Shown here piece after piece: positions 901 to 38,542 of a DNA stretch of 64,000 nt; position 1 is the stretch's first letter, and every line of letters begins with the position of its first letter. Under the pieces are notes generated by a model. The model saw nothing but the letters and a program-made list of their open reading frames with translations. It was not told the DNA's origin and did no database searches. The position numbers and the translations under genes are program-made. Origin of the DNA: a virus. Taxonomy: Duplodnaviria > Heunggongvirae > Uroviricota > Caudoviricetes. The stretch lies in IMG/VR virus record IMGVR_UViG_2671180724_000008. One strand, 5' to 3'.

Positions 901-3900
901 TTGGACATGGAACAGTTCAAGAAGAAAAAATTACCGCTTCTTATTGCCGGTGCTGGTGGCAAGAAAAGTAAAAGCTCCAGCCGTACACCGGTTGAAGCTG
1001 ATGATACTGTCAATTCTCGTGCTATGGCAGCCATCCTCGACCTTCTTGGCGAGGGGGTTATCGGTGGCCTGGTAAATGGCGCAAAGTCGATCTTCATCGA
1101 CGATTTACCGATCTTGAATGAAGATGGCTCTTCCAACTTCAGCGGTATTACATGGGATTTTCGTGACGGCTCACAAGACCAGACGCCAATGGCTGGTTTT
1201 GATTTTGTTGAAACGCCTAAGTCCGTAAATATTCAGCTTAAAAAAACACACGACGTTACGGTTTCAATCGATAACGATGAAGCTGATCGCGTTCGTGTCA
1301 TCATGAAATTCCCCTCTTTACGTAGCGTTGATAAAAGCTCTGGCGATACAAATGGCACTACGGTGAAGTACAAATTCCAGATCGCCAACGGAGACGCAAC
1401 ATTTTCTGATGTAGTGGCAGAAGGTGAGAAAAGCGTTGATATCACGCTAACGGCAAAGAAAACCGGCGTGTATTACCGTAGCTATGAGCTGAAACTGCCT
1501 AAGCCTGGTCGTGCATACAAGGTTAGGGTAATTCGTCTTACAGATGATAACAGTAGCCAGTACCTCTACAACGACACATGGGTTGATTCCATAGGTGAGA
1601 TTGTAGATACACCCATGAACTACCCTAATTCTGCACTTGTTGGCTTAAAGGTCAATTCAGAGCAGTTTGGTAGCACAATGCCTTCCCGTTCGTATTTGGT
1701 GCGCGGTATCAAAATTCGAGTACCGTCAAACTACAACGAATACACCAATACTTATGTCGGCGTATGGGACGGTACTTTTAAGCTGTTGTCTTCTTCAAAC
1801 CCTGCGTGGATTCTCTACGATTTGCTTACCAATACTCGGTATGGTCTTGGGCAATTTGTGTCGGAATCCATGATTGACCTCGGCCAGCTCTACCAGATTG
1901 GTCGATATTGTGACGAAGAGGTCGATGATGGCTTTGGGGGTAAAGAGAAACGCTTTGCAATCAATACGCAGATCACTAGTCGACAAGACGCATACCGATT
2001 AATTCAGGATATTGCCGGTGCATTCCGCGGCATGGTGTTTTGGGCTGGTGGCATGGTTAACATCATGCAGGATAGCCCATCAGATCCGGTAATGATGTTT
2101 ACCAACTCCAACGTCAAAGATGGGCTGTTTACCTATAAAGGTTCTGCGCGTAAAGATCGCCCATCCGTTGCGCTCGTAACCTACAACAACAAGGAGGACG
2201 GTTATAAGCAAAACATCGAGTACGTTGAAGATCAGGACGCAATGCGCCGTTATGGTGAGCGTAAAACAGAAGTCGTAGCATTTGGATGTACAAGCCGAGG
2301 CCAGGCTCACCGAGTTGGTTTGTGGCTTTTGTATACCGCCAGAATGGAGTCGGATGTAATTACATTTACTGCCGGCTTAGACGCCTCATTTCTGATGCCC
2401 GGTGAAACCGTTCTGATTCAGAACAAATATCGTGCAGGTAAACGTAACTCCGGTCGAATTGTGGAGTTTACCAAAAACAGCATCACTCTCGATGCGCCTG
2501 TGTCGTTAGCTAAAAGCGGCAGCTTTATTCGGATATTGAATCAGGAAGGCAAAATCGTTGAACGCGATGTTCTTGAAACTGGCGAAAACATAACAAAGGT
2601 TACGTTTTCAAAAGCCCTGTCGTCAGCGGAAACGCCTGTTTTGAACGGTGTCTGGACAATTACAGAACCAGATCTCGAACCTATGCGCGTTCGCATCGTT
2701 AACATCGCGCAGGGGGAAACGCCGGGTAGCTTTGACATCACCGCTGTTGAGAACAATCCGTCTAAATATGAGGCAATCGACAATGGTGCAACGCTTATCC
2801 CGCAGAATACGACGGTATTGGACCCGACTTACTCCAAGCCATCTAATTTGCAAATCACTGAAGGGACTTATCTCTCAAGCCCGGGAAACCTGTCAGTAAA
2901 ACTGACTGCAACATGGGAAGGGAAATCTCCAGAGTATTGGATCAGTTGGCGACGTTCTGATGAAAACAATGTATCGAACTGGCAATCGGCGCGTGTAACC
3001 GAAGAGCAATACGAAATCGTTAATGTCGCGGAGAATGGACGCTACGACTTCCAACTGTATGCGGTTTCATTCAACGGTAAAAAAACAGAAATTATCAGTA
3101 CCGTTTATCAGGTGCTGGGCACAATGACACCGCCGGATGCACCAACGTCATTAACGGCCGTTGGAGACTATCGTAATGTGATACTAAATTGGGTTAATCC
3201 AGATTCGGTAGACCTTGATCACATTAATGTTTACGCATCCCAGACCAACAATCTGGATACGGCGAAACTGATCGCGGAGTCTGCAAGCACCACCTTTACA
3301 CATGCTGGTCTTGGGGATAGTGAAACGTGGTATTACTGGGTTCGAGCATCGAACAAGCGCGGCATGTTAAGTCCTCCGAACTCAAACTTGGGTACAGAGG
3401 CGACAACTCGCGATGTACTGTCGTTCCTGGAAGGTAAGATTACATCGTCTGAGCTTGGTCAGGCTCTGCTTGAGGACATCCACAGCAAAGCCTCTCAAGA
3501 AGCAGTTGACGAGTTAAATGAGCATATCAACCAGAGCGTCGAATCTTTGGAGGGGGCGGTAAACGACGTTAAGGAAGATATAGCTGAATTAGATAAGCAG
3601 TTCAGCGATAACCTCGCGGATTTTGAAATAAAATTCAACGAGCGTAGCGATGCTTTGGAGAACGCACAAACCGAGCTTAAAGGTGAGGTTTCGGCAACGA
3701 TCGACAAGGTCAATGAAGCGTTTGAAAAAATTGGTGCTACTGATGCTGCAATTGTTGAAATCGAAAACACCGTATCTGAACACGATAAAGCTCTCGCTAA
3801 TACAGTCGAGGCAATAAAGGCTGCAAGAGATGAAGCAGCAGCTCTTATTGCTAAGGAAAGCGAGGCTCGTGTTGAAGGCGATGCTGCAAACGCTAAACAA

Positions 3901-5631
3901 CTGGAAGTGTTGCAGTCAACGGTAGAGGAAAGCTCCGCTGCCGTTGAAGAAATGAAAAAGACGGTTGCAGAGGTCGATCGTGCCAGTGCAGAACTGACTA
4001 CGAACATTGAGGCGTTAGCCAAAACAAATATTGACCTGGCTCTTCGTCAAGATGAAGACCAGCGCAAGCAGATGGTCAATAACGCGAAGATCGCAACAAC
4101 ACAGAAAACCTTTGCTGATGATATGTCTGCAATGGCCACGAAGGTTGAGGAAATTCGCGTAGAAATTGGCGAAGACATTAAGGCCAGTATTCTGGAAGAG
4201 TCCACCGCTCGTGCCGATGGCGATGAAGCGTTGGCAAAGCGTGTCACTCAGCTGCAATCTAAGTTTGAAGGAGATATCAGCGCGGCGATTAGTACAGAGC
4301 AGGAGGCTCGTACATCTGCCGATGAAGCTCTGACGACACAGATCACTCAGCTTGAGTCGAAAGTAAGCAACGATATCGTCGCAGCTATTAAGGAAGAGCA
4401 AGAAGCCCGAGCAACGGAAGATTCGGCTCTGGCAAGCCAGATCACCCAACTTCAGGCAAAGGTTGATGATGATATTTCTGCTGCAATACGTAGTGAGCAG
4501 GAGGCTCGAGCAAGCGGGGACTCTGCATTAGCCAAACAAATAAACCAGCTTCAGTCAAAGGTTGACGGTGATATATCCGCTGCCATCACTCAGGAGCAGG
4601 AGGCCAGGGCAAGTGCTGACCAGGCGCTCTCACGAGAAATTAACAGCCTGCGAGCACAGACCGGAACTGATATTGCCGCAGCGGTTGCTGTAGAGACAAA
4701 GGCAAGGACTGATGCCGATAGTGCATTGTCCACTCAGATTACGTCTCTTACAGCAAAAGCTAATGATCTCGAGGCATCTCTTGCCAGAGAAACAACGGCT
4801 CGTGCAGATGGTGATACCGCTTTAACAAAAGAGGTTTCAAGTTTAAAAGCACAGACTGCGAAAGATATTAGTGCGGCCGTTGCAGTTGAAACGCAGGCTC
4901 GAACTGATGCTGACTCGGCGTTGTCATCTCAGATCACCAAGCTGACCTCTCAATACAAAGAGGATATTAAAGCGGCTGTAGCAACCGAAACGAAAACGCG
5001 TACAGAGCAAGATGCGGCACTGGCGACTCAAATCACAAACTTAGAGTCTCAAACAGCAGCCAACATTTCTGCGGCGGTCACAACTGAAACGACAGCGAGA
5101 ACGCAGGCAGATAATGCTCTAAGTGGGCGAATCGATACTCTGAAAGCAGAGGTGGATGGAAATACCGCGACAATTCAACAGCAGGCAACGGCCATTGCTG
5201 ATACCAACAAAAAAGTCTCAACCGCGTGGACGTTGAAAATGGAGACTTCAACGAGCGGAGGGCAGAAGTATGTTGCCGGTATTGCGCTTGGTATCGACAC
5301 CACCGGTCTTTCTCAGTTTTTGGTGCAGGCGGACAGATTTGGTTTGGTCAACTCTGTTAACGGGAAGATCACCACGCCATTTGTTATCGAAAACAGTATC
5401 GCCTATATGAATGGTGCGTATATCAAGGATGGCACAATCACCAATGCAAAAGTAGGCGATCTGCAATCTACCAATTTTGTTAGCGGTAGATCTGGATGGC
5501 GGTTCGGCAAAAATGGAACGCTTGAGATCAACGGTAATAGCGGAGGTAATGGGCGACTGGTCATAAATGGTCAGCGGATTGACGTTTATGACGATAACAA
5601 CGTCCTACGAGTAAGAATTGGCCTTCTGTAA
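901..5631 (+). CDS. host specificity / tail tip protein (lambda J-like) with C-terminal coiled-coil repeat extension
   Basis: 1576-aa ORF with RBS-like aaggat upstream. Contains the J-family motif NPAWILYDLLTNTRYGLGQF and fibronectin-III-like segments, followed by about 300 aa of periodic Ala/Glu/Gln-rich repeats. Confidence 0.8.
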   Translation: MDMEQFKKKKLPLLIAGAGGKKSKSSSRTPVEADDTVNSRAMAAILDLLGEGVIGGLVNGAKSIFIDDLPILNEDGSSNFSGITWDFRDGSQDQTPMAGFDFVETPKSVNIQLKKTHDVTVSIDNDEADRVRVIMKFPSLRSVDKSSGDTNGTTVKYKFQIANGDATFSDVVAEGEKSVDITLTAKKTGVYYRSYELKLPKPGRAYKVRVIRLTDDNSSQYLYNDTWVDSIGEIVDTPMNYPNSALVGLKVNSEQFGSTMPSRSYLVRGIKIRVPSNYNEYTNTYVGVWDGTFKLLSSSNPAWILYDLLTNTRYGLGQFVSESMIDLGQLYQIGRYCDEEVDDGFGGKEKRFAINTQITSRQDAYRLIQDIAGAFRGMVFWAGGMVNIMQDSPSDPVMMFTNSNVKDGLFTYKGSARKDRPSVALVTYNNKEDGYKQNIEYVEDQDAMRRYGERKTEVVAFGCTSRGQAHRVGLWLLYTARMESDVITFTAGLDASFLMPGETVLIQNKYRAGKRNSGRIVEFTKNSITLDAPVSLAKSGSFIRILNQEGKIVERDVLETGENITKVTFSKALSSAETPVLNGVWTITEPDLEPMRVRIVNIAQGETPGSFDITAVENNPSKYEAIDNGATLIPQNTTVLDPTYSKPSNLQITEGTYLSSPGNLSVKLTATWEGKSPEYWISWRRSDENNVSNWQSARVTEEQYEIVNVAENGRYDFQLYAVSFNGKKTEIISTVYQVLGTMTPPDAPTSLTAVGDYRNVILNWVNPDSVDLDHINVYASQTNNLDTAKLIAESASTTFTHAGLGDSETWYYWVRASNKRGMLSPPNSNLGTEATTRDVLSFLEGKITSSELGQALLEDIHSKASQEAVDELNEHINQSVESLEGAVNDVKEDIAELDKQFSDNLADFEIKFNERSDALENAQTELKGEVSATIDKVNEAFEKIGATDAAIVEIENTVSEHDKALANTVEAIKAARDEAAALIAKESEARVEGDAANAKQLEVLQSTVEESSAAVEEMKKTVAEVDRASAELTTNIEALAKTNIDLALRQDEDQRKQMVNNAKIATTQKTFADDMSAMATKVEEIRVEIGEDIKASILEESTARADGDEALAKRVTQLQSKFEGDISAAISTEQEARTSADEALTTQITQLESKVSNDIVAAIKEEQEARATEDSALASQITQLQAKVDDDISAAIRSEQEARASGDSALAKQINQLQSKVDGDISAAITQEQEARASADQALSREINSLRAQTGTDIAAAVAVETKARTDADSALSTQITSLTAKANDLEASLARETTARADGDTALTKEVSSLKAQTAKDISAAVAVETQARTDADSALSSQITKLTSQYKEDIKAAVATETKTRTEQDAALATQITNLESQTAANISAAVTTETTARTQADNALSGRIDTLKAEVDGNTATIQQQATAIADTNKKVSTAWTLKMETSTSGGQKYVAGIALGIDTTGLSQFLVQADRFGLVNSVNGKITTPFVIENSIAYMNGAYIKDGTITNAKVGDLQSTNFVSGRSGWRFGKNGTLEINGNSGGNGRLVINGQRIDVYDDNNVLRVRIGLL
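4200..5120 (+). repeat. imperfect tandem coding repeats (about 40-aa period, coiled-coil-like) inside the J-like gene
   Basis: Recurring peptide pattern EQEARASADSALxxQIxxLxxKVxxDISAAI repeated more than 8 times. The same repeats generate the spurious long minus-strand ORFs in this region. Confidence 0.7.
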
Positions 5632-5723: not shown

Positions 5724-8700
5724 ATGTGGTACAGGGAAGGTACTATCACATTTACACAGGGTAGCAATACTCTGGTTGGGGTTGGGACAGCCTGGAACGT
5801 AACAGCTAATGGTGTGTTGCCGGGGATGATCGTCATTGGCCCCGACAATAAGCTGTATGAGATCAAGCGCGTAACAAGCGATACGAATATTGTTCTCTCA
5901 GAACCTTATACCGGCGAAACTCAGTCTGAAGTTCCGTGCCGAATCATTACGACCTATGAAGGCGACTTAACACAGTTTAGCGCGCGCTTTACTGCGCTAA
6001 TGTCGCGTATGTCGGCTGATTCCAAGTCCATGCGCAGTTGGTTGACTGCTCTTGATGAGGTGACAATCGAGCGTGAAGACGGTACAGAAGTTACCGTTAA
6101 GCCGCTGATGCAGATCGTCAACGAGCACAACGAAAACGTTGAGTGGTATAAAAATAACACCGACGCGATTGACGCTGCTGGCGACAAAGCTCGTGAGGCG
6201 GCGGCCAGTGCTGCCGCAGCAGCAGAAAGCGCCAATACCGCTGGAGAAAAAGCCTCTCAAGCGTCTCAAAGTGCATCCGCTGCGGAATCCTCACAAAGTG
6301 CTGCAAGTGCGAGTGCAACTGCTGCGAAAAAATCTGAAACGAACGCAGAATCAGCATATGTCGCGGCAGCAGAATCAGCATCTGTAGCGTCGACTAAAGC
6401 ATCGGAGGCGGCCACATCTGCGTCCAGTGCCTCTGCATCTAAGGATGCGGCTAAAGCATCAGAGGCTAACGCTTCATCGAGTGCAAACGCGGCGGCATCA
6501 TTTGCAACAGAAGCTGAAAATTCGTCTAAGGCAGCAAAAGCGTCAGAGACAAACGCAAAAGCATCTGAAACGGCAGCCGGGCAGAGTGCATCGTCTGCAA
6601 ACAGTTCGAAATCTGCGGCAGAAGCGTCAGCAAGCGCAGCCTCAGCAAGTGCGGATAGTGCTTCATCAAGTGCAACTGCGGCAGGAAAATCTGCGGAAAG
6701 CGCGTCGTCATCAGCGGCAACAGCTACCGCAAAAGCGACTGAGGCGACGAATCAGGCTACAGCCGCTAAAAATTCAGCATCAGCAGCGAAAACCTCTGAA
6801 ACAAATGCAAAGTCTTCAGAAGACAATGCCGCTTCCTCTAAGACTGCGGCTGCTGAATCTGCAAGTTCTGCGTCAGCATCAGCCACCTCGGCGTCTGCTT
6901 CAAAGGATGAGGCGACCAAGCAGGCATCAGCTGCGAAGGGTAGTGCTTCAACGGCATCCACGAAAGCAACAGAGGCGGCAGGCAGTGCGACGGCTGCATC
7001 TCAGAGCAAAACTGCTGCTGAATCCGCTGCGACTCGTGCAGAAGCTGCCGCTGATCGTGCTGAAGAGATTGCCGGTGCAGTTGCGATGGAAGACGCAAGC
7101 CTTACAACTAAAGGTGTTGTGAAACTTAGCAGTGCTGTCGATAGCACCAGCGAATCACTGGCTGCAACTCCAAAGGCAGTTAAAGCTGCGAATGACAATG
7201 CGAATAGCCGATTGGCGAAGAACCAGAATGGTGCTGATATACCAGGTAAGGATACCTTCACGAAAAATATTGGCGCTGGGCGAGCATTTGGAGGCTCTGT
7301 AAGTACAACAGCAGGAAACTGGACTACGGCACAGTTTGTCGAATGGTTGGACTCTCAAGGGGCGTTTAATCATCCGTACTGGATGTGTAAAGGCTCATGG
7401 TCGTATGGCAACAACAAAATCATTACTGATACTGGTTGTGGCAATATTCATCTTGCCGGGGCAGTAATTGAGGTAATGGGGATAAAGTCAGCAATGACGA
7501 TCCGCGTTACCACACCAACAACATCTAGCGGTGGTGGTACTGCTAACGCTCAATTTACTTATATTAACCACGGGACAGATTATTCTCCAGGCTGGCGACG
7601 AGACTACAATACAAAATACAAACCTACGCCATCGGATATAGGTGCATTATCAACATCAGGAGGGACGGTTTCAGGTCCGTTGTCTGTTACTGGTGGATTA
7701 ACTGGTTCATTGAATGGCAATGCGAGTACCGCCACGAAATTGCAGACTGCAAGAACTATCGGCGGCGTGGCCTTCGATGGATCTGCGAACATAAATTTGC
7801 CTGGTGTAAACACGGCAGGTAATCAGAGCACTACTGGTAATGCCGCAACCGCTACAAAACTTCAAACGGCAAGAACGATTGGTGGCGTTTCATTTAACGG
7901 AACTGCCAACATCGACTTGCCCGGAGTTAACAAAGCTGGCAACCAAAGCACCACAGGTAATGCTGCTACAGCTACTAAATTGCAGACAGCAAGAACCATC
8001 GGTGGTGTAAGCTTCGATGGCACTGCGAATATTAATTTGCCTGGTGTTAATGCTGCCGGTAATCAGAACACTACCGGTAACGCGGCCACAGCGACCAAGT
8101 TGCAAACTGCTAGAACTATTAACGGGGTGTCGTTTAACGGCTCTGCGAATATTTCAATACCAACAATTACGTCCAGAGGACGCGTTACTGCGCTCACCGG
8201 TACAACACAAGGTGCTGCGACTGGATTGCAGATGTACGAGGCATATAACAATGGCTACCCTTCGACTTACGGGAATGTGCTTCATCTTAAGGGCGCAACG
8301 GCCGTTGGTGAAGGTGAGTTGTTCATAGGTTGGAGCGGTACAAGTGGTGCTCATGCGCCTGTACATGTACGTTCGCGACGAGATACGGATACATCCAGTT
8401 GGTCTGAATGGGCGCAAGTTTATACGTCCAAAGACTCTATTCCAGGTGTCAATGCCACCGGTAATCAGAACACTACTGGCAACGCAGCCTCTGCAACGAA
8501 GTTGCAGACAGCCAGAACAATTGGAGGTGTGTCGTTTAATGGTACCGCCAATATTAACTTGCCGGGTGTTAATATAGCGGGTAATCAGAATACGACTGGT
8601 AACGCAGCTTCAGCCACGAAGTTACAAACGGCTCGTACCATCGGTGGTGTTAGTTTTAACGGTACAGCCAATATTAACTTACCTGGTGTGAATACGACCG

Positions 8701-9251
8701 GTAATCAGAACACTACTGGTAATGCTGCAACCGCCACAAAATTGCAGACAGCAAGGAAAATTGCTGGTGTTGCGTTTGATGGCTCTGCCGATATAACTTT
8801 GACTGCGGCTAACCTTAATGCTTATACGAAAACAGAGGTAACAAACCTTCTAAGTTCCTATGTGAAGAGCAGTGCTCTTCCAAGCATGACTGTGCGAACT
8901 TCCTCTGTATCAGGTGGGGATATGGGCATGAGTTTGTCTGCGTTCATTAGCCACCTTAAATCAAATGGAGCGTTTAGCAAAAGTTATTGGATTGGCTTTG
9001 GCGATGCTATGGGATTCAATGCTGGTAGTATCAACAATATAACGGGATTTGGTGCTGTAGAATTAGCAGAATCTATAATCGAAGTTTTTAATCTACCTAA
9101 CGGTGATTATACAATTCGTTTAACAACATCACATAAAGCTGACTACGGTGGAGTTACAAACGCAATCCTCGTTTATCACTACCGTAGTAATAGAAGTCCG
9201 TCAGGTCAATGGCTGAAATTTGCCGGTACTGTTGGGGCAACAAGCAACTGA
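5724..9251 (+). CDS. side tail fiber protein with phage-tail-fiber tandem repeats
   Basis: 1175-aa ORF with RBS aaggag upstream. Long Ala/Ser-rich low-complexity N-terminal third, then 9 copies of a 33-aa unit (TGNAATATKLQTARTIGGVSFNGTANINLPGVN). Confidence 0.7.
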   Translation: MWYREGTITFTQGSNTLVGVGTAWNVTANGVLPGMIVIGPDNKLYEIKRVTSDTNIVLSEPYTGETQSEVPCRIITTYEGDLTQFSARFTALMSRMSADSKSMRSWLTALDEVTIEREDGTEVTVKPLMQIVNEHNENVEWYKNNTDAIDAAGDKAREAAASAAAAAESANTAGEKASQASQSASAAESSQSAASASATAAKKSETNAESAYVAAAESASVASTKASEAATSASSASASKDAAKASEANASSSANAAASFATEAENSSKAAKASETNAKASETAAGQSASSANSSKSAAEASASAASASADSASSSATAAGKSAESASSSAATATAKATEATNQATAAKNSASAAKTSETNAKSSEDNAASSKTAAAESASSASASATSASASKDEATKQASAAKGSASTASTKATEAAGSATAASQSKTAAESAATRAEAAADRAEEIAGAVAMEDASLTTKGVVKLSSAVDSTSESLAATPKAVKAANDNANSRLAKNQNGADIPGKDTFTKNIGAGRAFGGSVSTTAGNWTTAQFVEWLDSQGAFNHPYWMCKGSWSYGNNKIITDTGCGNIHLAGAVIEVMGIKSAMTIRVTTPTTSSGGGTANAQFTYINHGTDYSPGWRRDYNTKYKPTPSDIGALSTSGGTVSGPLSVTGGLTGSLNGNASTATKLQTARTIGGVAFDGSANINLPGVNTAGNQSTTGNAATATKLQTARTIGGVSFNGTANIDLPGVNKAGNQSTTGNAATATKLQTARTIGGVSFDGTANINLPGVNAAGNQNTTGNAATATKLQTARTINGVSFNGSANISIPTITSRGRVTALTGTTQGAATGLQMYEAYNNGYPSTYGNVLHLKGATAVGEGELFIGWSGTSGAHAPVHVRSRRDTDTSSWSEWAQVYTSKDSIPGVNATGNQNTTGNAASATKLQTARTIGGVSFNGTANINLPGVNIAGNQNTTGNAASATKLQTARTIGGVSFNGTANINLPGVNTTGNQNTTGNAATATKLQTARKIAGVAFDGSADITLTAANLNAYTKTEVTNLLSSYVKSSALPSMTVRTSSVSGGDMGMSLSAFISHLKSNGAFSKSYWIGFGDAMGFNAGSINNITGFGAVELAESIIEVFNLPNGDYTIRLTTSHKADYGGVTNAILVYHYRSNRSPSGQWLKFAGTVGATSN
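7720..8165 (+). repeat. 99-bp (33-aa) tandem repeat block 1 inside tail fiber gene
   Basis: Five consecutive near-identical units encoding ATKLQTARTIGGV(S/A)F(N/D)G(S/T)ANI. Confidence 0.75.
8440..8800 (+). repeat. 99-bp (33-aa) tandem repeat block 2 inside tail fiber gene
   Basis: Three to four further units of the same repeat after an intervening unique domain. Confidence 0.75.
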
Positions 9252-9288
9252 TTTAGACATTATTTCTAATAAGGATAATTTATAAGAT

Positions 9289-9321
9289 GGTTGTGAGGTC
9301 GATAAATATGGCCTCACAACC
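9289..9321 (+). terminator. stem-loop downstream of tail fiber gene (putative terminator or RNA stabiliser)
   Basis: 10-bp perfect inverted repeat ggttgtgagg / cctcacaacc around a 13-nt loop. No clear T-tract follows, so efficiency is uncertain. Confidence 0.35.
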
Positions 9322-9341
9322 GCAGTTATAAGGATATATTT

Positions 9342-9596
9342 ATGAGCTATGGTGCACAGGTTTGGTCGCCATCAAGACAGGAGATGGTCGATGCGTTGGC
9401 CCCTGTTTATTACCTCGATTATTTTACTCCCTCTGGTTCTGGAAGTAGAACATATGATGTTGAGGCGGGATTGGGAATCGACTATTACATAATGGACGTA
9501 ACCAATGGGAAATACACAAGTCTTACGGTTTCTGGAAATACCATTTCATGGTCTGGAGCTAGTGGTAATTTAAACATATTGGTTTTTCAAAAATAA
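9342..9596 (+). CDS. hypothetical protein
   Basis: 84-aa ORF; stop overlaps the start of the next ORF (translational coupling). Lies in a lower-GC segment after the tail fiber. Confidence 0.4.
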   Translation: MSYGAQVWSPSRQEMVDALAPVYYLDYFTPSGSGSRTYDVEAGLGIDYYIMDVTNGKYTSLTVSGNTISWSGASGNLNILVFQK

Positions 9597-10204
9597 TGTA
9601 CGGAAGCAAGATATATCGATCTGACGGGAAGGTCTGGATGTCTCCTTCTTTGTCTCCTATCGTTTTTCAGAGAAAGCAGGTTGTTTCTTTATCCGGCGGG
9701 ACAGAGTTTAACACCCAAATATCTCCAGATCGTTCACCGATGATTTTTGTTGCCTATTCGAAAGCTGTTTCATTAATAGCCAACAGAATAGTGCGTAACA
9801 ACCAGGTGATTTACAGTTTCGGAGGTCAGGGTAGCGACTCTAGTGCCACGATATACGTATTTTCGAAAGGTATAGCCAAAAAAGAAACTTGGGGCATGAG
9901 TTTTTTCAATGCACAAGGGGAGGAAATCTATAATACGGCAAATATCCCACTTTCATTTACCTTTCTTAATAATACGGAGTGGAACAGCTCTGGAGGGCAT
10001 GTTTTTGATTACCCACCAGCGATAATCCCAACGTATGCGAATGTGTTCGCTGTTCCAGTACCGGGCGGAGCCATGACAATGGTTTATGGATATGCGGCAT
10101 ATGGAAATACTGTTAGCTCGATATTCGTAAACCAACTTAATGGCGGCCATAGTTTTAGCGTAAATGGCAGAGTACCGGTAATAAATAGAAATCTGTATAA
10201 CTGA
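9596..10204 (+). CDS. hypothetical protein (possible tail fiber accessory protein)
   Basis: 202-aa ORF translationally coupled to the preceding ORF. Position after the fiber gene; no recognisable motif. Confidence 0.4.
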   Translation: MYGSKIYRSDGKVWMSPSLSPIVFQRKQVVSLSGGTEFNTQISPDRSPMIFVAYSKAVSLIANRIVRNNQVIYSFGGQGSDSSATIYVFSKGIAKKETWGMSFFNAQGEEIYNTANIPLSFTFLNNTEWNSSGGHVFDYPPAIIPTYANVFAVPVPGGAMTMVYGYAAYGNTVSSIFVNQLNGGHSFSVNGRVPVINRNLYN

Positions 10205-10211
10205 TGAGTAA

Positions 10212-10445
10212 ATGATGAAAAGATTATTTCTAACAATAGCTGTTGTTCTCTCTCTTACTGGCTGCCAGAAATTGCCGACACCTATATGTTATGGTGAGGC
10301 TATCATTGGTGGACAGGAGACTGTCATACCTATATATGCTGTTAAAAAAGTGAACGACTATACCTTATACAAAGCGGGTAGCATCTATAACTGGCGATGG
10401 GTTGGAGTAGGTGCTTTCTCATCAGTCCGTTGCAATGCTGAATGA
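10212..10445 (+). CDS. small lipoprotein, candidate superinfection-exclusion (Cor/Llp-like) protein
   Basis: 77-aa ORF with lipoprotein signal MMKRLFLTIAVVLSLTGC (lipobox LTGC). Sits immediately after the receptor-binding genes. Confidence 0.45.
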   Translation: MMKRLFLTIAVVLSLTGCQKLPTPICYGEAIIGGQETVIPIYAVKKVNDYTLYKAGSIYNWRWVGVGAFSSVRCNAE

Positions 10446-10514
10446 TAGGTAAGTACACACCTACAACAAAAGGGTGAAATGTGATATAAATCCGCCATCC
10501 CGATTTGACTTTTC

Positions 10515-10850
10515 ATGGAGGAAAACATGTCGAACGAGATGGCGGGCGTTACAACAGAGCAAGTTGAGCGTATTGCCGCGATCGTTGCTCGGGAGGTTGT
10601 TGGCAAATTAGGTAAAGAGCTACGTGAAGAAATTGGCCAGGAGGTCAATGATCAGCTGAAAACCTACTTTGGTGATATGACCCCGGCGCAACATAGTATT
10701 CAACACTCCAATCTGGACAAACTCCTTAACCGGTTAGATTCCATCTCAAGTGGGTTCTTTGGCGGCATTGTTTCTAAAATAACGTCGTTCATTATTACCG
10801 CACTGCTTTTGGGGTTAGCCGCGTATGGCGTAAAAAATGGACTGCAATAA
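10515..10850 (+). CDS. membrane protein of lysis cassette (holin candidate)
   Basis: 111-aa ORF with a single C-terminal hydrophobic helix, directly upstream of the endolysin-like and spanin genes. Confidence 0.35.
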   Translation: MEENMSNEMAGVTTEQVERIAAIVAREVVGKLGKELREEIGQEVNDQLKTYFGDMTPAQHSIQHSNLDKLLNRLDSISSGFFGGIVSKITSFIITALLLGLAAYGVKNGLQ

Positions 10851-10863
10851 CAGGAGATCAAGG

Positions 10864-11556
10864 ATGAAGACTCCGAGAGGCATTCGTAATAATAACCCCG
10901 GTAATCTTGATAAAGGATCACCGTGGCAAGGTCTGGTTGTGAATCCAGACGAACCGCGCTTTTGCACGTTTAAAGACCCTGTTTGGGGGATTCGTGCGCT
11001 GGCGGTGACTCTAATTACCTACCACGACAAACGTCGCGCAAAAGACGGCTCAAGTATCGATACCATTCGTGAAGTTATTGAACGTTGGGCACCGCCGAAT
11101 GAAAACAACACTGACGCCTACATTAATGAGGTGTCTAAAGCCGTTGGTGTAACCGCAGACATGATCATCGATCTGCATGATTACGACATCCTTCGACCTT
11201 TGGTTGAGGCAATCATTCGCCACGAGAATGGTCGAGGTCCACTAAAAACGCTGAATACCTGGTATGCGGCAGAAGTTATTGAGGAAGGTCTGCGTCGAGC
11301 TGGCGTCGTTAAGCCGGTGAAAACCGTGAAGGCTGTTCCTGTAACTAAAGAAACAGCAGGCGCAACTGTCACAGCAGGTATTGGTCTGGCGCAGCTTGCC
11401 GATGTTATGCCGCAGGTTTCCGCTGCTATGGATAAGGCACAAGGTCATATCTCTAGCGGGGATACAGTACGCATCATCTTCGGTATTGCCACTATTGTTG
11501 TGGCAGGATTCATTGCCTGGTCGCAGGTAAGAAAACACCAGAAAGGGATGGTCTAA
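10864..11556 (+). CDS. putative endolysin / peptidoglycan hydrolase with C-terminal membrane anchor
   Basis: ATG at 10864 preceded by caggag. Conserved-looking N-terminal motif GIRNNNPGNL; C-terminal hydrophobic segment. Position between holin candidate and spanins. The ORF track offers an earlier start at 10837. Confidence 0.4.
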   Translation: MKTPRGIRNNNPGNLDKGSPWQGLVVNPDEPRFCTFKDPVWGIRALAVTLITYHDKRRAKDGSSIDTIREVIERWAPPNENNTDAYINEVSKAVGVTADMIIDLHDYDILRPLVEAIIRHENGRGPLKTLNTWYAAEVIEEGLRRAGVVKPVKTVKAVPVTKETAGATVTAGIGLAQLADVMPQVSAAMDKAQGHISSGDTVRIIFGIATIVVAGFIAWSQVRKHQKGMV

Positions 11557-11557
11557 T

Positions 11558-11809
11558 ATGCTAGGCAGCCTGATGACAAAGCTAAAAGTTGCTTTGATTA
11601 CGCTGGCTGCCGTTCTTTTCGTTCTGGTCGGCGCTTACACGATGGGCGGAAATGCGGCGCGACGAGCAATGGAAGAGAAGGCAAAACAGGAAGACAGGAA
11701 ACGACTTCAAAGCACATTGGACGTCAAAAATGAAACACTTGATGAGTTACGGAGCAAGGATGCTTCTACTGTTCATCATGAGTTGCACAATAAGTGGTTG
11801 CGTGATTAA
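11558..11809 (+). CDS. i-spanin (Rz-like)
   Basis: 83-aa protein with an N-terminal transmembrane helix followed by a charged helical periplasmic region; its start overlaps the endolysin stop. Confidence 0.55.
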   Translation: MLGSLMTKLKVALITLAAVLFVLVGAYTMGGNAARRAMEEKAKQEDRKRLQSTLDVKNETLDELRSKDASTVHHELHNKWLRD

Positions 11810-11960
11810 GCCTCAACCCGCTGGTGTGCTTTTCTGCGATGCGGCTACACCGCTATACATCAGCCGTGATGATCTCATGACCGAAGAGACTGAAAGAGAG
11901 GTGCTTTTTCACAATATGATAGGGGAGCGATTGTGTGGATGGGGCAGAAAAGTACCCTAA
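11730..11960 (+). CDS. o-spanin (Rz1-like lipoprotein), overlapped with i-spanin in another frame
   Basis: Internal start MKHLM in the 11652..11960 ORF. Lipoprotein signal with lipobox ISGC. Begins inside the i-spanin gene and extends beyond it. Confidence 0.5.
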   Translation: MKHLMSYGARMLLLFIMSCTISGCVIKPQPAGVLFCDAATPLYISRDDLMTEETEREVLFHNMIGERLCGWGRKVP

Positions 11961-12137: not shown

Positions 12138-12521
12138 ATGCTGAACGAAAAACGTTCTATACAAACAATTCGCGATTGCACGAGTGTTATCGCAACTCAT
12201 GTGCTGAATAAGCGCAAACTTGAGGTGCGTAAACTTAACAACGATGCGACTGCGCCAAAAGACACTCGCTTCATCGTAACTTTCAAAGACGATGTTGAGA
12301 ATGCTGGTGCCAGTGTAAAACCGTTGGCTGAAGCGATTTTCCTGAACGATCGTGTTCGTTTCATTGTGAAGCCAGCAAAACAATACCCTGAATTAGCACG
12401 GTTTAGTGACCAATTCTCTGAAATTATTGAGAGTGCAATTCGCCGCTTTCTTAATACTCATGGTAGCATTGTCAGCAATACAACTGCTGATGGTACTGCT
12501 CTAAGATGGCACCTACACTAG
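12138..12521 (+). CDS. hypothetical protein
   Basis: 127-aa ORF with RBS-like aaggtgg upstream. Confidence 0.4.
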   Translation: MLNEKRSIQTIRDCTSVIATHVLNKRKLEVRKLNNDATAPKDTRFIVTFKDDVENAGASVKPLAEAIFLNDRVRFIVKPAKQYPELARFSDQFSEIIESAIRRFLNTHGSIVSNTTADGTALRWHLH

Positions 12522-13258
12522 AACGCACATACTCTAAAAATCTTTATGAGTTTCCTCACCGTGGGGAAACTCGCGTTTCACGTTTTGGCTACCTCATCAA
12601 CGAAGCATCGCTTTTCAAAATATCTGAAATAACCATTATCGAGCCTGATGATGATATCTGTCTGTATATCCTGATGGAGAAAGTTGGAGCACGAGATCAG
12701 GGTGAACTGATGGACTTCATTCTGGACAGAGGCGAAGATGGAATGTCTGATTCGGACATTATTCAAGCAATTCTGCGTTCCGACATGCTCGATCAGAGCA
12801 GAAACACGATAGCAGGCAGAATTGCATTGCGTGAATACACATTCATCGAGGATGGGGTAGAGATTGACTGCTATCAGATTGCAGGTGTTGAAACAGAAAG
12901 AGCAATAAGGCAAAGGGGACTGTGCAACCTCACGTATCGCTTCCTCCTTCATTGGTACGAACATCTTGTCTGTGATTACAATCAGACCATTCCTGGCGCA
13001 AAAATCTGGGCCGGTCCATTAATGCGAACAGGTGATGTAAGAATTTACAACGCAAAAACTGAGACGTTCGAGGATGTGTTAGGCGAATATGGGATGGGAA
13101 AAGAAACCGGCTTTTTGCCGTGGAACAGAGGATTGTTACTTGATCCAGAATTAAGCTCTTGGTTTCCAAATAAGGTGCAAGTTAACGTTGAGAAATTTAT
13201 CGTACTTATCATCTCCCGCAAAACAAGAACCCCAGTTGGTTTATATCTAAAAGATTAA
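12506..13258 (+). CDS. hypothetical protein
   Basis: 250-aa ORF overlapping the preceding stop; followed by a canonical terminator. Confidence 0.45.
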   Translation: MAPTLERTYSKNLYEFPHRGETRVSRFGYLINEASLFKISEITIIEPDDDICLYILMEKVGARDQGELMDFILDRGEDGMSDSDIIQAILRSDMLDQSRNTIAGRIALREYTFIEDGVEIDCYQIAGVETERAIRQRGLCNLTYRFLLHWYEHLVCDYNQTIPGAKIWAGPLMRTGDVRIYNAKTETFEDVLGEYGMGKETGFLPWNRGLLLDPELSSWFPNKVQVNVEKFIVLIISRKTRTPVGLYLKD

Positions 13259-20348: not shown

Positions 20349-21667
20349 AAAAGTTGATCGCACTTAAGCATAAGCTGGACGAAATGAAAGCTATGGGAAC
20401 CAATGCAAAAAAAGAGGCATTGGCCAACATGGATGACTTCGAGCAAAGCATGGTTTCATTGATGCTCAACCCTTTCATCCGTTTTGGGGTAAAGAAATAC
20501 AAAGTGGCAGAGCCGCTTAGTGAGTCCGTCCCAAGTGACGAAAAAGCCATTGATATACTGAATAAGCTGGCCTCTCGCGAGCTGACGGGGAACGCAGCAA
20601 TAGCTGCTGTTGAGTCTATCGTGGCGTCAATGTGCGCCGATGGGCAGGACGTGTTCCGTCGTTTCCTCTTAAAAGATCCGAAAGCTGGCGTTGGGATTAG
20701 CCTATGCAACAAGGTTTTTGAAAATCCCATTCCGAAATTCGAGGTGCAGCTGGCGTCACCGTATAAAGAAAAAGGCGACAAATACCCCTTCAAGCCAAAT
20801 CCTAAAGCAAAATGGCCGATGATTGGCAGCCTTAAGCTCGATGGTTTGCGAGTAATTTGCGAGGTTATTGTTGACGAGGAAGAGGTGAACTTCCTTTCTC
20901 GTACTGGTAATCCAATCACGTCTCTCGATCACCTAAAGCCAGCCATGCTCGAATTAGGCAAACTTTCAGGCCACAAACACATCTTCTTCGATGGTGAAGG
21001 AACAGCCGGTTCATTTAACAAGTCCGTATCTGCATTGCGCAAAAAGAACGTGCAGGCAATTGGCGCTATTTATCATGTTTTCGACTTCTTCCTACCGGAA
21101 TGGCGGGCACAGGCTAAATCCAAAGAGTATGCAAAGACAGGTATGAAGCTGAAAGAGCGCCTGGCTATTCTCGTGGCGTTGTTCAAAAACGATCGCAGTG
21201 AAGACTACGCGCAAGACATTCACCTACATCCGTTCTACATCATCCATAGCCACGAAGACTTCATCGAACGCTTCATGAAACGCCTGGACGATAACGAAGA
21301 AGGGGAGATGGGCAAAGATCCGAACTCTGTTTACGAGTTTAAACGTACCCGCAGCTGGTGGAAGTTAAAAGACGAAGATTCAGAAGATGGTGAAATTATC
21401 GACTTTGAGCCGGGCGACCCGGACTCTGGTTTTGCCAACACACTTGGAAAAATTGTTATTCGTCTTGAAAACGGCGTCATCGTTCGTGCGAGCGGCATTA
21501 AGCATAAATATCTGGACGAGATCTGGAACAACAAAGAGAAGTACCGTGGTCGTATTGTCGAGGTTCATTGTCACGAGAAAACACCGGACGGCAGCTTACG
21601 CCACCCACGACTGAAATGGCCGCGTTGCTTACGCGATACAGAAGATCGAATCGGAGATAAAGAATGA
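20345..21667 (+). CDS. ATP-dependent DNA ligase
   Basis: 440-aa ORF with nucleotidyltransferase motif I KLDGLR (GSLKLDGLRV). Confidence 0.65.
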   Translation: MKKLIALKHKLDEMKAMGTNAKKEALANMDDFEQSMVSLMLNPFIRFGVKKYKVAEPLSESVPSDEKAIDILNKLASRELTGNAAIAAVESIVASMCADGQDVFRRFLLKDPKAGVGISLCNKVFENPIPKFEVQLASPYKEKGDKYPFKPNPKAKWPMIGSLKLDGLRVICEVIVDEEEVNFLSRTGNPITSLDHLKPAMLELGKLSGHKHIFFDGEGTAGSFNKSVSALRKKNVQAIGAIYHVFDFFLPEWRAQAKSKEYAKTGMKLKERLAILVALFKNDRSEDYAQDIHLHPFYIIHSHEDFIERFMKRLDDNEEGEMGKDPNSVYEFKRTRSWWKLKDEDSEDGEIIDFEPGDPDSGFANTLGKIVIRLENGVIVRASGIKHKYLDEIWNNKEKYRGRIVEVHCHEKTPDGSLRHPRLKWPRCLRDTEDRIGDKE

Positions 21668-35697: not shown

Positions 35698-36129
35698 ATG
35701 ATCACCGATATTTACGAGAAAATAATGTCTGATCTCGAGTTTGACCGAGACAATCTGGAGGAAGTCTGGCGTAGACAACCCCGCCTTTTAATGGAGTATG
35801 GCTCAAAACTCGCTCATGCAGAAAGAAGTGTCGCAGAGGCAAAACTTAACCTTGAAGCTGTTGAAGCAAAGCTATACGACACAGAGCGTAAGAACTTGAG
35901 TATGAACGGCATTAAGTTCAACGAGTCTGTACTGGACGCTAAGGTTAAAACAAACCCACAGTATCTGTCTAAACGGCAGAAGTTGGATGAAGCACGGCAC
36001 ATCGCAGACATATACAAACATGCTGTCGCCGCCTTTTCGCATCGCCGAGACATGATCGTTCAGGCGTCGAAGATGGCCATCGTTGAGTTAGATCGATTAG
36101 GCTCTGAACGCTTTATTACTCCCCGTTGA
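35698..36129 (+). CDS. hypothetical protein
   Basis: 143-aa ORF with the conserved start context aaaaggaaagcacATG, between the polymerase and SSB genes. Confidence 0.45.
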   Translation: MITDIYEKIMSDLEFDRDNLEEVWRRQPRLLMEYGSKLAHAERSVAEAKLNLEAVEAKLYDTERKNLSMNGIKFNESVLDAKVKTNPQYLSKRQKLDEARHIADIYKHAVAAFSHRRDMIVQASKMAIVELDRLGSERFITPR

Positions 36130-36246
36130 TTTTTGATAGATAATAAGTAAGTACTGATCTATCATTTAACAGCTCGAAAGAGCCACGAATGAACGAAAGC
36201 CCAACGCGCATAGCGCCATCGGCCAAATCACAACAAGGAGAAACAC

Positions 36247-37269
36247 ATGTCTAAGACATTACTTGATTTGCTTAACAAAACTCGTGAAGACATTGCCGCC
36301 AAACGTGGCAAAAACACTGATTTGACCCGCTTAAAAGACGGCATCAACTATATCCGCATCTTCCCTAATAAAGACGACCCGAATGGTAAGTTCTTCCAGA
36401 CTTTTGGTATGCACTACATTAAGTATCAGAACGAGGAAGGTAAAGAAGCAACCAATGCTTATATTTGTGAGCAACATACTCACGGTCGCGCTTGTCAGCT
36501 ATGCGAAATGGTGATGGAAGGTCGCGCTCGTCACAAGGGTAACAAAGCAATGGAAGAGCGCATCGGTCAAATGCGTGCAACCCCTCGCTACCTGGTAAAC
36601 GGCATTCTTTCAACTCGTGAGGATTTCTCCGATGCAGAGAAATGTCAGTTAATCGAACTGCCTTCCACTGTGTTCGATGATATCTGCAAAGCAATCACCG
36701 AAGACATCGCTGACGATATCGGCAATCCATTAAGCAAAGAGGAAGGTTACGCATTTCAAATTAAGCGCACAGGCTCTGGTCGCGATACAGAATATGACGT
36801 TTCACCAAAACGTAAAGTCTTCAAAGGTGATATCGAAGATAAATTCTGGAACAACCAACATGACCTGATTGCTTATGTGAATCAGGCCGATGAAACTCGC
36901 CTTCTTGCGACAGTTCGCACTATGGGTCGTCTGATTGGCATCGCTGCACCAACTGCCACTGCATCGGCACCAGCAATTTCCTCAACAGCGAAAACATCGG
37001 CCTCTGCACTGCCTGGATTTGGCTCGATCACTGGTCATACGGAAGGAGCGACGGCTGTAGCAACCGCCCACACTCCAGCTTCTGAACCAACCAGTCTGGT
37101 TGATGAAGAAGTCCTGCGAGCAATGGAATCTGAATTTAAATCAGAAACAAGTTCTGCTGCCACATCAGCCAAAGAGTCTGAAGCAGACGCAACGACATCT
37201 GTAGCAGCCGCATCTGCGGCGGAAGATGAAGGTATTGATGACCTGCTGAAAGAACTGGAGTCTCTGTAA
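36247..37269 (+). CDS. single-stranded DNA-binding protein (T4 gp32-like) with acidic C-terminal tail
   Basis: 340-aa ORF. N-terminal region aligns by eye with gp32 (INYIRIFPNKDDPNGKFF versus gp32 AVIRFLPSKNDEQAPF) and carries a Cys/His cluster CEQHTHGRACQLC. Acidic C-terminus EDEGIDDLLKELESL. Confidence 0.6.
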   Translation: MSKTLLDLLNKTREDIAAKRGKNTDLTRLKDGINYIRIFPNKDDPNGKFFQTFGMHYIKYQNEEGKEATNAYICEQHTHGRACQLCEMVMEGRARHKGNKAMEERIGQMRATPRYLVNGILSTREDFSDAEKCQLIELPSTVFDDICKAITEDIADDIGNPLSKEEGYAFQIKRTGSGRDTEYDVSPKRKVFKGDIEDKFWNNQHDLIAYVNQADETRLLATVRTMGRLIGIAAPTATASAPAISSTAKTSASALPGFGSITGHTEGATAVATAHTPASEPTSLVDEEVLRAMESEFKSETSSAATSAKESEADATTSVAAASAAEDEGIDDLLKELESL

Positions 37270-37286
37270 TCCCATTACGTGACCAG

Positions 37287-37314
37287 TAAGGCGTCTACGG
37301 ACGCCTTACTTTTT
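37287..37314 (+). terminator. rho-independent terminator after SSB gene
   Basis: taaggcgtc-tacg-gacgcctta hairpin followed by ctttttgg. It lies inside the longest version of the next ORF, arguing for a later start. Confidence 0.6.
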
Positions 37315-37329
37315 GGAAGGAATGTACCG

Positions 37330-38274
37330 GTGAATTATCTCTTCGTAGATGGCAATAGCCTGGGTTATTACCACCAACAATCTGACAAATTGCACAACGG
37401 CGAAATGGAAGTACAGGCTGCTTTCGGCTTTGTTAAGAACGTCCGTCGTTATGCCTCCATCCTCCATGCCCGACCTATGATTCTTTGGGATGGATTTAGT
37501 GACAAGCGTCGCGACTTTTACCCGGACTACAAAGCAAATCGCGACGACGATCCTGATATGAAAAAGATGAAGGAAGGCTTTGCTGTCCAGAAGCCATACA
37601 TCCTCAAAATGATGACCGCGCTTGGTGTTAACCAAATCATTGCAAAAGATGCAGAAGCGGATGATCTGGCCGGGCTGCTGGTATCCCGCATGGCACCGCA
37701 GCCAACCGTTGAACACATCTATCTGTTAACAGGCGATAGCGACTGGCTTCAGTTAGTTCGCGAAAACGTAAGCTGGGTAAGCCTGCGTGAAGACGCCAAA
37801 AACAAGCAGGTTAATTTTGAGCAATTTGCGGAGCTGACAGGATTCGCCACGCCTCGCGCATTTTTGGAAGCAAAAGCATTACAAGGCGATAACTCGGACA
37901 ACATTAGCGGTGTTGGTGGCATTGGTGCTGGCGGCGCGAAAGAGCTGCTGCATGAATGGGGAAGTGTCGCAACGATGGTACGCGGCATCAACGACGGCTC
38001 AATCGTGGTTAATAAAGGGCGTCATAAGACCGCCTTCAACAAACTAGCGAAGAATGCCTTCAACGAGAAAACAGGCTGTCGAATGCTCGAAGCGTTCAAG
38101 AGAAACATCACGCTAATGAACCTGATTGAGACGAAGTTTCCGCCTACCGAAATCGAAACAATCAAAGGCAATCGTGACGTGAAAGCATTCGAGCAACTGT
38201 GCTACGAGCTGAATTTCCGTTCGTTCCTTGAAGACCTTGAAGTGTTTGTTCTTCCATTCGAAAGGTATTGCTAA
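37330..38274 (+). CDS. 5'-3' exonuclease / flap endonuclease (T4 RNase H / T5 D15-like)
   Basis: N-terminal LFVDGNSLGYY and downstream acidic clusters typical of the FEN/PIN fold. Start set at GTG 37330 after the terminator, with ggaagg RBS; the ORF track start is 37279. Confidence 0.6.
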   Translation: MNYLFVDGNSLGYYHQQSDKLHNGEMEVQAAFGFVKNVRRYASILHARPMILWDGFSDKRRDFYPDYKANRDDDPDMKKMKEGFAVQKPYILKMMTALGVNQIIAKDAEADDLAGLLVSRMAPQPTVEHIYLLTGDSDWLQLVRENVSWVSLREDAKNKQVNFEQFAELTGFATPRAFLEAKALQGDNSDNISGVGGIGAGGAKELLHEWGSVATMVRGINDGSIVVNKGRHKTAFNKLAKNAFNEKTGCRMLEAFKRNITLMNLIETKFPPTEIETIKGNRDVKAFEQLCYELNFRSFLEDLEVFVLPFERYC

Positions 38275-38540
38275 TGCTTAAATCGATTATTAATGGCGCT
38301 ACCACCACCCCTACCCAACTGGCAAAAGAGATTGTCTTTTATCACGGTGAGTACGCTGTCATCGCACTGCCGTCAATTCTAGGCGCTGCCGGAATGAAAG
38401 CGACAGATCGCGAGTTTGGATTAGTCAGCGAGCAGGTCGTAAAAATCCTCGCTCGTGTATCCAAACACCTTAACCACGATGCGATTGTATTCGACGAATC
38501 CGCCGCTTTAAAACGAATCAACAAAACAAAAGGAGCCTGA
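38268..38540 (+). CDS. hypothetical protein
   Basis: 90-aa ORF overlapping the stop of the exonuclease gene. Confidence 0.3.
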   Translation: MLMLKSIINGATTTPTQLAKEIVFYHGEYAVIALPSILGAAGMKATDREFGLVSEQVVKILARVSKHLNHDAIVFDESAALKRINKTKGA

Positions 38541-38542
38541 TC

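Follow-up and report, generated by a model that had tools for sequence, protein, structure and literature searches.

The locus lies within a 64,000-nt window, the whole stretch of DNA that was analysed, which belongs to an SSU5-like siphovirus phage-plasmid of E. coli. The window carries a gpJ-like central tail fibre gene on the plus strand (901-5631; 1576 aa) and, between gpJ and the genes of interest, a further fibre gene (5724-9251; 1175 aa). Three plus-strand genes follow. The first (9342-9596) encodes an 84-aa, gp22-like putative small subunit or accessory protein of PHROG 557, the second (9596-10204) a 202-aa, gp23-like candidate receptor-binding protein of PHROG 425, and the third, cor (10212-10445), a 77-aa outer-membrane lipoprotein with an Llp-like predicted fold (NF047972; PHROG 1119). 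The ATG of the 202-aa gene shares one base with the TAA of the 84-aa gene (TAATG), and a gap of 7 nt separates the 202-aa gene from cor. A lysis cassette comprised of holin, endolysin, Rz and Rz1 genes (10515-11960) comes next, and then ParA. The original prediction of a coupled three-gene module after the fibre gene agrees exactly, in strand and coordinates, with these open reading frames. Judged from sequence comparison, all three are real genes and not chance ORFs, because they have strong profile matches (PHROG E-values of 1.7e-24, 4.5e-49 and 2.3e-30 for the 84-, 202- and 77-aa proteins, respectively) and syntenic homologues in SSU5, T1, N15 and HK022.

The module had also been described as lower in GC, and a real dip is present (0.417 in the module and 0.457 in the window, with 0.473 in the gpJ gene and 0.489 in the fibre gene), but it is modest and unremarkable, as the module stands at the 9th percentile of module-sized windows (sd 0.031) and GC falls as low as 0.306 elsewhere in the window. 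The dip starts already in the final ~450 nt of the fibre gene (0.416) and takes in the 90-nt spacer that leads from this gene to the module (0.30). Given that percentile, low GC as a sign of recent foreign DNA was rejected. RNA folding predicted a 14-bp hairpin on the plus strand of the spacer (9288-9322); the region 9252-9345 folds at -26.9 kcal/mol (z = -4.35), and none of 200 shuffles was as stable. Since the hairpin has no U-tract after it, it is not a canonical terminator. It just precedes the left edge (~9327) of a block that is common to related plasmids. A terminator scan found none between cor and the lysis cassette, and the four promoter-like sites returned by a promoter scan were not above chance (7.1 expected from shuffles), which gives no promoter support for expression of cor in the plasmid (lysogenic) state.

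The Cor-family lipoprotein

By its profile match, the 77-aa product belongs to the Cor family of superinfection-exclusion lipoproteins. It scored 80.7 bits against the NCBIfam equivalog NF047972 ('phage exclusion lipoprotein Cor'; cut-off 31 bits), and the control scores were 138.8 bits for HK022, 77.5 for SSU5, 71.5 for Stx2-86 and 55.8 for T1. Bas04_25, a BtuB-linked lipoprotein, reached 18 bits, under the cut-off, and the LptD-linked Rtp45 gave no match to this profile. The identical gene already bears the RefSeq name "phage exclusion lipoprotein Cor". Its product has a hydrophobic N-terminus (residues 5-23) with a signal peptide and lipobox (MMKRLFLTIAVVLSLTG followed by the cysteine; LTGC, with the lipidation cysteine at position 18), and the Gln at +2 means that there is no inner-membrane retention signal. 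A weak match to Pfam LPAM_1, through the lipobox motif, was the sole Pfam match among the three proteins.

The Cor proteins of phi80, HK022, N15, mEp167 and T1 are of the same family and size, and share the lipobox, the Cys pair and the GG/AG motifs. Residues C26, C74, G33, G34, A55, G56, V64, F69 and S71 are invariant between the window protein and the Cor of T1, N15, HK022, SSU5 and Stx2-86, and the three cysteines are invariant across 69 sequences; the second pair (C26, C74) could form a disulfide. The window Cor differs from the studied ones, to which it is 28-47% identical (HK022 47%, N15 42%, T1 28%), and forms a sub-group with those of SSU5 (59%) and Stx2-86 (58%). Its gene differs from the studied cor genes in its setting as well, being located on a ~110-kb phage-plasmid with a fibre gene between it and gpJ and lysis genes directly after it. 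Bas04_25 is a distant relative (PHROG 1119 at E 1e-7) with no similarity to the window protein beyond the signal peptide.

The AlphaFold model of Cor has a small, Llp-like beta fold, and its best structural match is T5 Llp bound to FhuA (PDB 8A60, 7QJF). A phmmer search of all PDB chains, these two entries included, returned nothing for Cor at E up to 1, and the T5 partner of Llp is pb5, an unrelated receptor-binding protein (RBP). With no sequence similarity to Llp, Cor appears to be Llp-like in its action and to stand outside the Llp family. The score above the curated equivalog cut-off, the retention of the invariant Cor residues and this structural match together uphold the prediction that the last gene encodes a Cor/Llp-like lipoprotein. 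The lipoprotein was also considered as an o-spanin and rejected, as the spanin PHROGs match 11558-11809 and 11652-11960 and not the 77-aa protein; with a separate Rz/Rz1 pair downstream, it is not a lysis component. By analogy with the studied members of the family, this Cor would confer superinfection exclusion.

Families and modular structure of the upstream pair

The arrangement of these genes has been described before under the term 'Cor cassette' (PMC13164509), in which the upstream pair was without structural matches and was guessed to have a role in exclusion. A small-then-large pair follows gpJ in T1 (gp32, gp31), N15 (gp22, gp23) and HK022 (100-aa and 212-aa ORFs), with cor adjoining. 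The order in N15, HK022 and SSU5 is that of the window, while T1 has cor inverted. SSU5, a Salmonella phage, carries an orthologous trio in the same order with the same lysis genes after it (SSU5_023, SSU5_024 and SSU5_025; 69%, 75% and 59% identity), but has a different allele and an extra fibre-assembly gene ahead of the trio. The trio is thus 59-75% identical to that of SSU5, compared with 91-96% for the holin, endolysin and ParA, a gap that appears typical of host-range alleles.

Both proteins of the pair align over their full length with the T1, N15, HK022, Bas04 and Stx2-86 homologues. In an eight-sequence alignment, the homology extends over the full length in every lineage, and motifs are conserved at the N-terminus, in the centre and at the C-terminus. 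Besides its 69% identity to SSU5_023, the 84-aa protein is 37% identical to Bas04_24, from a BtuB phage, and ~27% identical to T1 gp32, N15 gp22 and the HK022 100-aa ORF. A profile search of 1.84 billion representatives gathered the 202-aa family into 191 clusters, nearly all of 200-235 aa. One match of 337 aa (P0275) was considered as a natural fusion of the small and large proteins and rejected; it joins a gpJ fragment to an RBP fragment and is likely a gene-call or assembly chimera. No second copy of the pair occurs elsewhere within the window. Neither upstream protein was above the cut-off in Pfam or matched NCBIfam, and a sequence search of PDB chains returned no match for any of the three proteins.

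The PHROG labels of the pair are 'outer membrane protein' (557) and 'membrane associated protein' (425). No signal peptide or transmembrane segment was found in either protein, and the maximum 19-residue Kyte-Doolittle value is 0.54 for the 84-aa and 1.24 for the 202-aa protein. Because signal peptide and hydrophobic stretch are both lacking, these 'membrane' names look unfounded. The 84-aa protein is soluble and beta-rich, and the 202-aa protein has two beta modules, each opened by the hairpin motif (Y/W)G-x-x-(I/F)-x-(N/D)-x-x-G. There is evidence in the profiles that the 84-aa protein and the first, N-terminal module of the 202-aa protein are paralogues: hhalign aligned the 84-aa family with positions 2-74 of the 202-aa family at 76% probability (E 2.3e-5). 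The opening hairpin motif of the 84-aa protein also recurs at residue 98 of the 202-aa protein.

Proposed receptor binding by the pair and alternative roles

We consider it fairly probable that the gpJ tip bears a dedicated RBP formed by the 202-aa protein, probably with the 84-aa protein as its partner, and that Cor closes the same receptor, most likely FhuA. The gene structure, the Cor family membership, the lipobox, the predicted folds, the synteny and the distribution are shown by the analysis; that the pair is located in the virion, that it attaches to gpJ, which receptor it uses and that Cor excludes are what we infer in the following scheme. The pair would be produced late and be mounted at the tip of the gpJ central fibre, where it would bind a host outer-membrane beta-barrel, most likely the TonB-dependent ferrichrome transporter FhuA. 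Cor would bind the periplasmic face of this receptor so that the phage binding protein is no longer accepted, as T5 Llp does on FhuA. Related phages and the element's own progeny would then fail to adsorb to cells or debris that bear the element.

The gpJ protein of the window offers a plausible point of attachment. Its C-terminal ~100 aa (...PFVIENS...DGTITNAKVG...SGWRF.KNGT.E..G....G......Q.I.V.D.NNVLRVRIG) can be aligned to the J termini of the FhuA-using T1, N15 and HK022 and the BtuB-using Bas04 and tonijn, and are nearly identical in SSU5 and Cyrano. This distal domain is presumed to be the docking site of the pair, and its presence in all of these phages fits a common docking platform. 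T1 gp32/gp31/cor (FhuA) and Bas04_0024/0023/0025 (BtuB) each combine this conserved gpJ domain with a homologous pair (PHROG 557 and 425) and a cognate lipoprotein. The window pair represents a third lineage beside these FhuA and BtuB types, and gene order and strand vary among the lineages.

Dedicated RBPs have been proposed to be non-covalently attached to such J tips, the type of locus has been tied to receptor specificity with the large protein as the bona fide RBP, and the post-gpJ locus has been read as encoding RBPs, accessory proteins and cognate exclusion proteins (BASEL, PMC8594841; preprint 10.64898/2026.04.02.716166); the support given in these two sources is correlative and includes AF3 models. 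The FhuA-loop paper took gpJ itself as the RBP. In the cryo-EM paper on the T1 tail tip, the gpJ C-terminus is unresolved and gp31/gp32 are unmentioned. Our search of the literature brought up no virion proteomics on the pair family, and nothing informative for the trio locus was present in the mEpimmI, TldR and F7 pyocin papers.

A structural link comes from phages that use LptD. The predicted fold of the 202-aa protein is a candidate match to a proven and solved RBP of a small siphophage that binds LptD, although a Foldseek search with the 202-aa model returned no significant PDB match, the model being of moderate confidence and of low confidence for residues 147-190. In the LptD system, cryo-EM has placed the Oekolampad RBP outside LptD and Rtp45 inside (PMC12685063). 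The proteins concerned, Rtp44/Rtp45 and the Oekolampad RBP with its SE protein (PDB 9RPT, 9RPS), differ from the window trio in having the RBP as one chain of 311-327 aa instead of 84 + 202 aa and LptD as the receptor; they are marginally similar in sequence, and Rtp45 lies outside the Cor family. The 202-aa protein did not match PHROG 1265, the Rtp44 family, at E up to 0.1, and the search of 1.84 billion representatives gave no bridge from its family to Rtp44-like proteins. Cyrano CYRAN_89, a member of PHROG 425, also matches PHROG 1265 (E 1.9e-6), and hhalign, run with the family against eight Rtp44-like sequences, gave a weak in-register match of residues 49-125 to Rtp44 156-237 (E ~5e-4, probability 28-32%). 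By eye, Rtp44 contains three such hairpin motifs ~100 residues apart. These three motifs, and a length of 311 aa that is close to 84 + 202 aa, suggest that the pair is a split form of a single-chain RBP.

At the locus itself, the position of the genes in the late operon, between fibre and lysis genes and without a terminator after cor, counts for receptor binding. Counting against it, besides the Sp5 homologues and the placement of the Cyrano pair described below, the pair is not directly 3' of gpJ, since the 1175-aa fibre gene intervenes here as it does in SSU5, and Cyrano has the same gpJ tip as the window, yet its pair is only 26-34% identical, so that no co-variation of tip and pair is visible. 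The original prediction had taken the long fibre as the receptor-binding gene next to the lipoprotein. It is most likely the 84/202-aa pair itself that holds this place, as such a pair follows gpJ in T1, N15 and HK022. The two upstream ORFs had been guessed to be fibre chaperones or receptor-modifying factors, a guess disfavoured by the lack of a match to any chaperone family, by the linkage to gpJ and by the RBP-like predicted fold of the 202-aa protein. The main reading of the locus, a Cor/Llp-like exclusion lipoprotein candidate, stands, with the guess on the upstream genes replaced by a probable two-chain RBP.

For the receptor, we place FhuA at a little over one half. The window Cor outscores that of the FhuA-dependent phage T1 (80.7 vs 55.8 bits), and the cassette is present in all ten of the Drexlerviridae/Dhillonvirus BASEL phages that use FhuA (PMC13164509). 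The pair conflicts with this call in being nearer to the BtuB-linked lineage (29-37% identity to Bas04/tonijn, 21-27% to FhuA-linked pairs). It might therefore be asked if the cassette works as proposed with a new specificity allele, for which the receptor would be BtuB or another TonB-dependent transporter or barrel. That the pair is a lineage of its own would suit such an allele, and so would the distant relationship of Bas04_25 to Cor, by which the family spans more than one receptor, a point that is also remarked upon in PMC13164509. Nevertheless, we regard this version of the cassette, with a receptor other than FhuA, as unlikely, given that the window Cor lies far over the equivalog cut-off and over T1 Cor, that Bas04_25 lies under this cut-off, and that the two lipoproteins are alike only in the signal peptide.

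The KanT1 paper works from the assumption that the pair are helpers of Cor exclusion in the infected cell, and not virion parts. The co-travel of the three genes in unrelated FhuA phages and their tight coupling here would be explained by such a role. The Cyrano pair stands among non-structural genes, and homologues in the Stx2 phage Sp5 seem dispensable for infectious particles. In Sp5, ORF72 (92 aa) and ORF73 (205 aa), which we assigned as pair homologues by agreement in size and position with Stx2-86 gp27/gp28, have individual deletion primers, and the set of nine genes required to form infectious particles on K-12 does not include them (PMC5155283); it follows that at least that lineage can be dispensed with in the laboratory. 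We nonetheless find a helper role quite improbable. Lacking a signal peptide or membrane segment, the pair cannot reach the envelope where Cor acts, and it is found without Cor in Stx phages and Cyrano. T1 encodes cor and the pair on opposite strands, and in the Cyrano lysogen the pair is missing from the list of genes with reported expression. The candidate match of the predicted 202-aa fold to a solved RBP is also left unexplained. The cloned cor of phi80, HK022 and mEp167 is reportedly enough for exclusion by itself.

It is very improbable indeed that the pair serves as assembly chaperones or adaptors of the upstream long lateral tail fibre, even though it is directly 3' of the fibre gene here and after the fibre and assembly genes in SSU5, given the lack of a match to tail-fibre assembly families in Pfam, PHROGs and NCBIfam, the fibre assembly/adhesin gene that SSU5 has of its own ahead of the trio, the position of the pair after gpJ in T1, N15 and HK022 with the T1 side-fibre gene kilobases off, and the variation of the fibre C-terminus among related plasmids that keep the trio (the match begins at ~9327 in about 90% of plasmids).

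Distribution among SSU5-like phage-plasmids

A 110-kb plasmid of E. coli S87 contains the segment 9200-10500 with 100% identity. Of 5426 complete E. coli genomes, 77 have the segment at >=90% identity, in every case on a plasmid; most related plasmids match the window only from ~9327 on. The SSU5-like lysis cassette is present in 238 of the 5426 genomes. Among these carriers, the window trio is present in 77, while 150 carry a different pair elsewhere in the element. This other pair is Stx-phage-like and is flanked by a CYRAN_87 homologue and a DUF4942 gene. The same placement is seen in Cyrano, where the pair is ~60 kb from gpJ, far from the tail genes, with no Cor adjoining. Cyrano has no trio after the fibre gene, and Cor accompanies the fibre-locus version only. 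A plasmid with the identical 9200-10500 segment, which differs from the window past the lysis genes, has no pair at the Cyrano-type locus. Among the plasmids listed, one (198 kb) carries both the trio and the distal pair. The distribution thus comes close to a single pair in each element, placed at one of two sites.

A broader reading joins these observations to the LptD link. We offer it tentatively and consider it on the whole doubtful. The pair would be a two-chain split of the single-chain RBP of LptD phages, with three beta modules and the same opening hairpin motif in each version. SSU5-like elements would carry exactly one such set, placed either behind the fibre gene together with Cor or in the accessory region with Cor lacking, and swaps of the set would retarget the receptor. 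The window allele would be neither of the classical FhuA nor of the BtuB type.

The Cor cassette is already described and cor is already named in public annotation. What is gained here is evidence that two misnamed 'membrane' proteins are soluble and RBP-like, and that the FhuA-, BtuB-, Stx- and SSU5-type proteins form one family with a predicted-structure link to an LptD-binding protein. It also emerges that about one third of E. coli SSU5-like plasmids have the window allele and that most others have a different pair elsewhere. SSU5-like phage-plasmids occur in about 4% of complete E. coli genomes (238/5426), and knowledge of the receptor that they use and shut would help to predict the host range and phage resistance of their carriers, which bears on phage therapy and on the spread of these elements. 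If set-swapping is true, the elements, including those that carry antibiotic resistance, may be retargeted to other outer-membrane receptors.

Tail fibre genes and the adjoining spacer

The gpJ homologue, or central tail fibre (901-5631, + strand), is, at 1576 aa, longer than usual, compared to 1061-1192 aa in N15, T1 and HK022. At approximately aa 1000-1400 it contains many tandem, coiled-coil-like units of ~33 aa (…DISAAI.xEQEARAxxDxALAxQIxQLQSKVxx…), which are located N-terminal to the conserved distal domain. The lateral fibre protein, encoded at 5724-9251, has a low-complexity Ala/Ser-rich tract of ~300 aa close to its N-terminus and repeat units of the form GNQ.TTGNAA.ATKLQTARTIGGV.F.G.ANI.LPGVN, and its C-terminal ~150 aa vary among plasmids that are alike elsewhere. 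The spacer that separates the fibre gene from the three-gene module contains a strong hairpin with a 14-bp stem (9288-9322). Fold prediction of 9252-9345 gave -26.9 kcal/mol (z -4.35), and no U-tract was found 3' of the hairpin. Since the hairpin lies just 5' of ~9327, the point at which the match to most related plasmids begins, it may mark a boundary of recombination or processing.

Start of the large-protein gene

The large protein of the small and large pair of candidate receptor-binding proteins was assigned to 9596-10204 (+ strand), with the ATG at 9596 as its start. PGAP and RefSeq place the start at an internal Met (window position ~9638), which gives a product of 188 aa, and the shorter call has been made in E. 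coli plasmids and also in SSU5 (SSU5_024). The N-terminus read from the ATG at 9596, MYGSKI..DGKVWMSP, is kept among the homologues from Bas04, tonijn and Stx2-86. Public annotation probably misses the first 14 codons of the gene.

A second pair type and a variable slot in related elements

A second type of small and large pair, whose nearest relative is the Stx-phage type, is present in phage Cyrano (81933-82831; 5001-5899 of locus L009) and ~150 E. coli plasmids. The Cyrano-type pair is in an accessory region distant from the tail genes, flanked by a hypothetical gene on one side and a DUF4942 gene on the other, and lacks Cor; in these genomes the fibre gene is followed directly by the holin. 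In the window, the lysis cassette is separated from ParA by two overlapping genes at 12138-13258 (127 and 250 aa; PHROG 2594 and 3307) that returned no match in a Pfam search. At this position the S87 plasmid and Cyrano encode a toxin-antitoxin pair of the TacA/TacT (KacT) type, which identifies this as a variable slot. Outside the window, the related S87 element carries full-length metG (methionine-tRNA ligase) and apbC within its phage-plasmid backbone (S87 plasmid 35989-39280; 30722-34013 of locus L010).

The lipoprotein of BtuB-linked pairs

In Warwickvirus, a lipoprotein is encoded beside the BtuB-linked pair (Bas04_0025, 20776-21045 of locus L007; 4452-4727 of locus L002). It is a distant relative of Cor, the superinfection-exclusion lipoprotein: it matches PHROG 1119 (E 1e-7), but its score on the NCBIfam Cor model is only 18 bits, against a cut-off of 31. 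The range of the Cor fold family thus seems to extend to more than one receptor.
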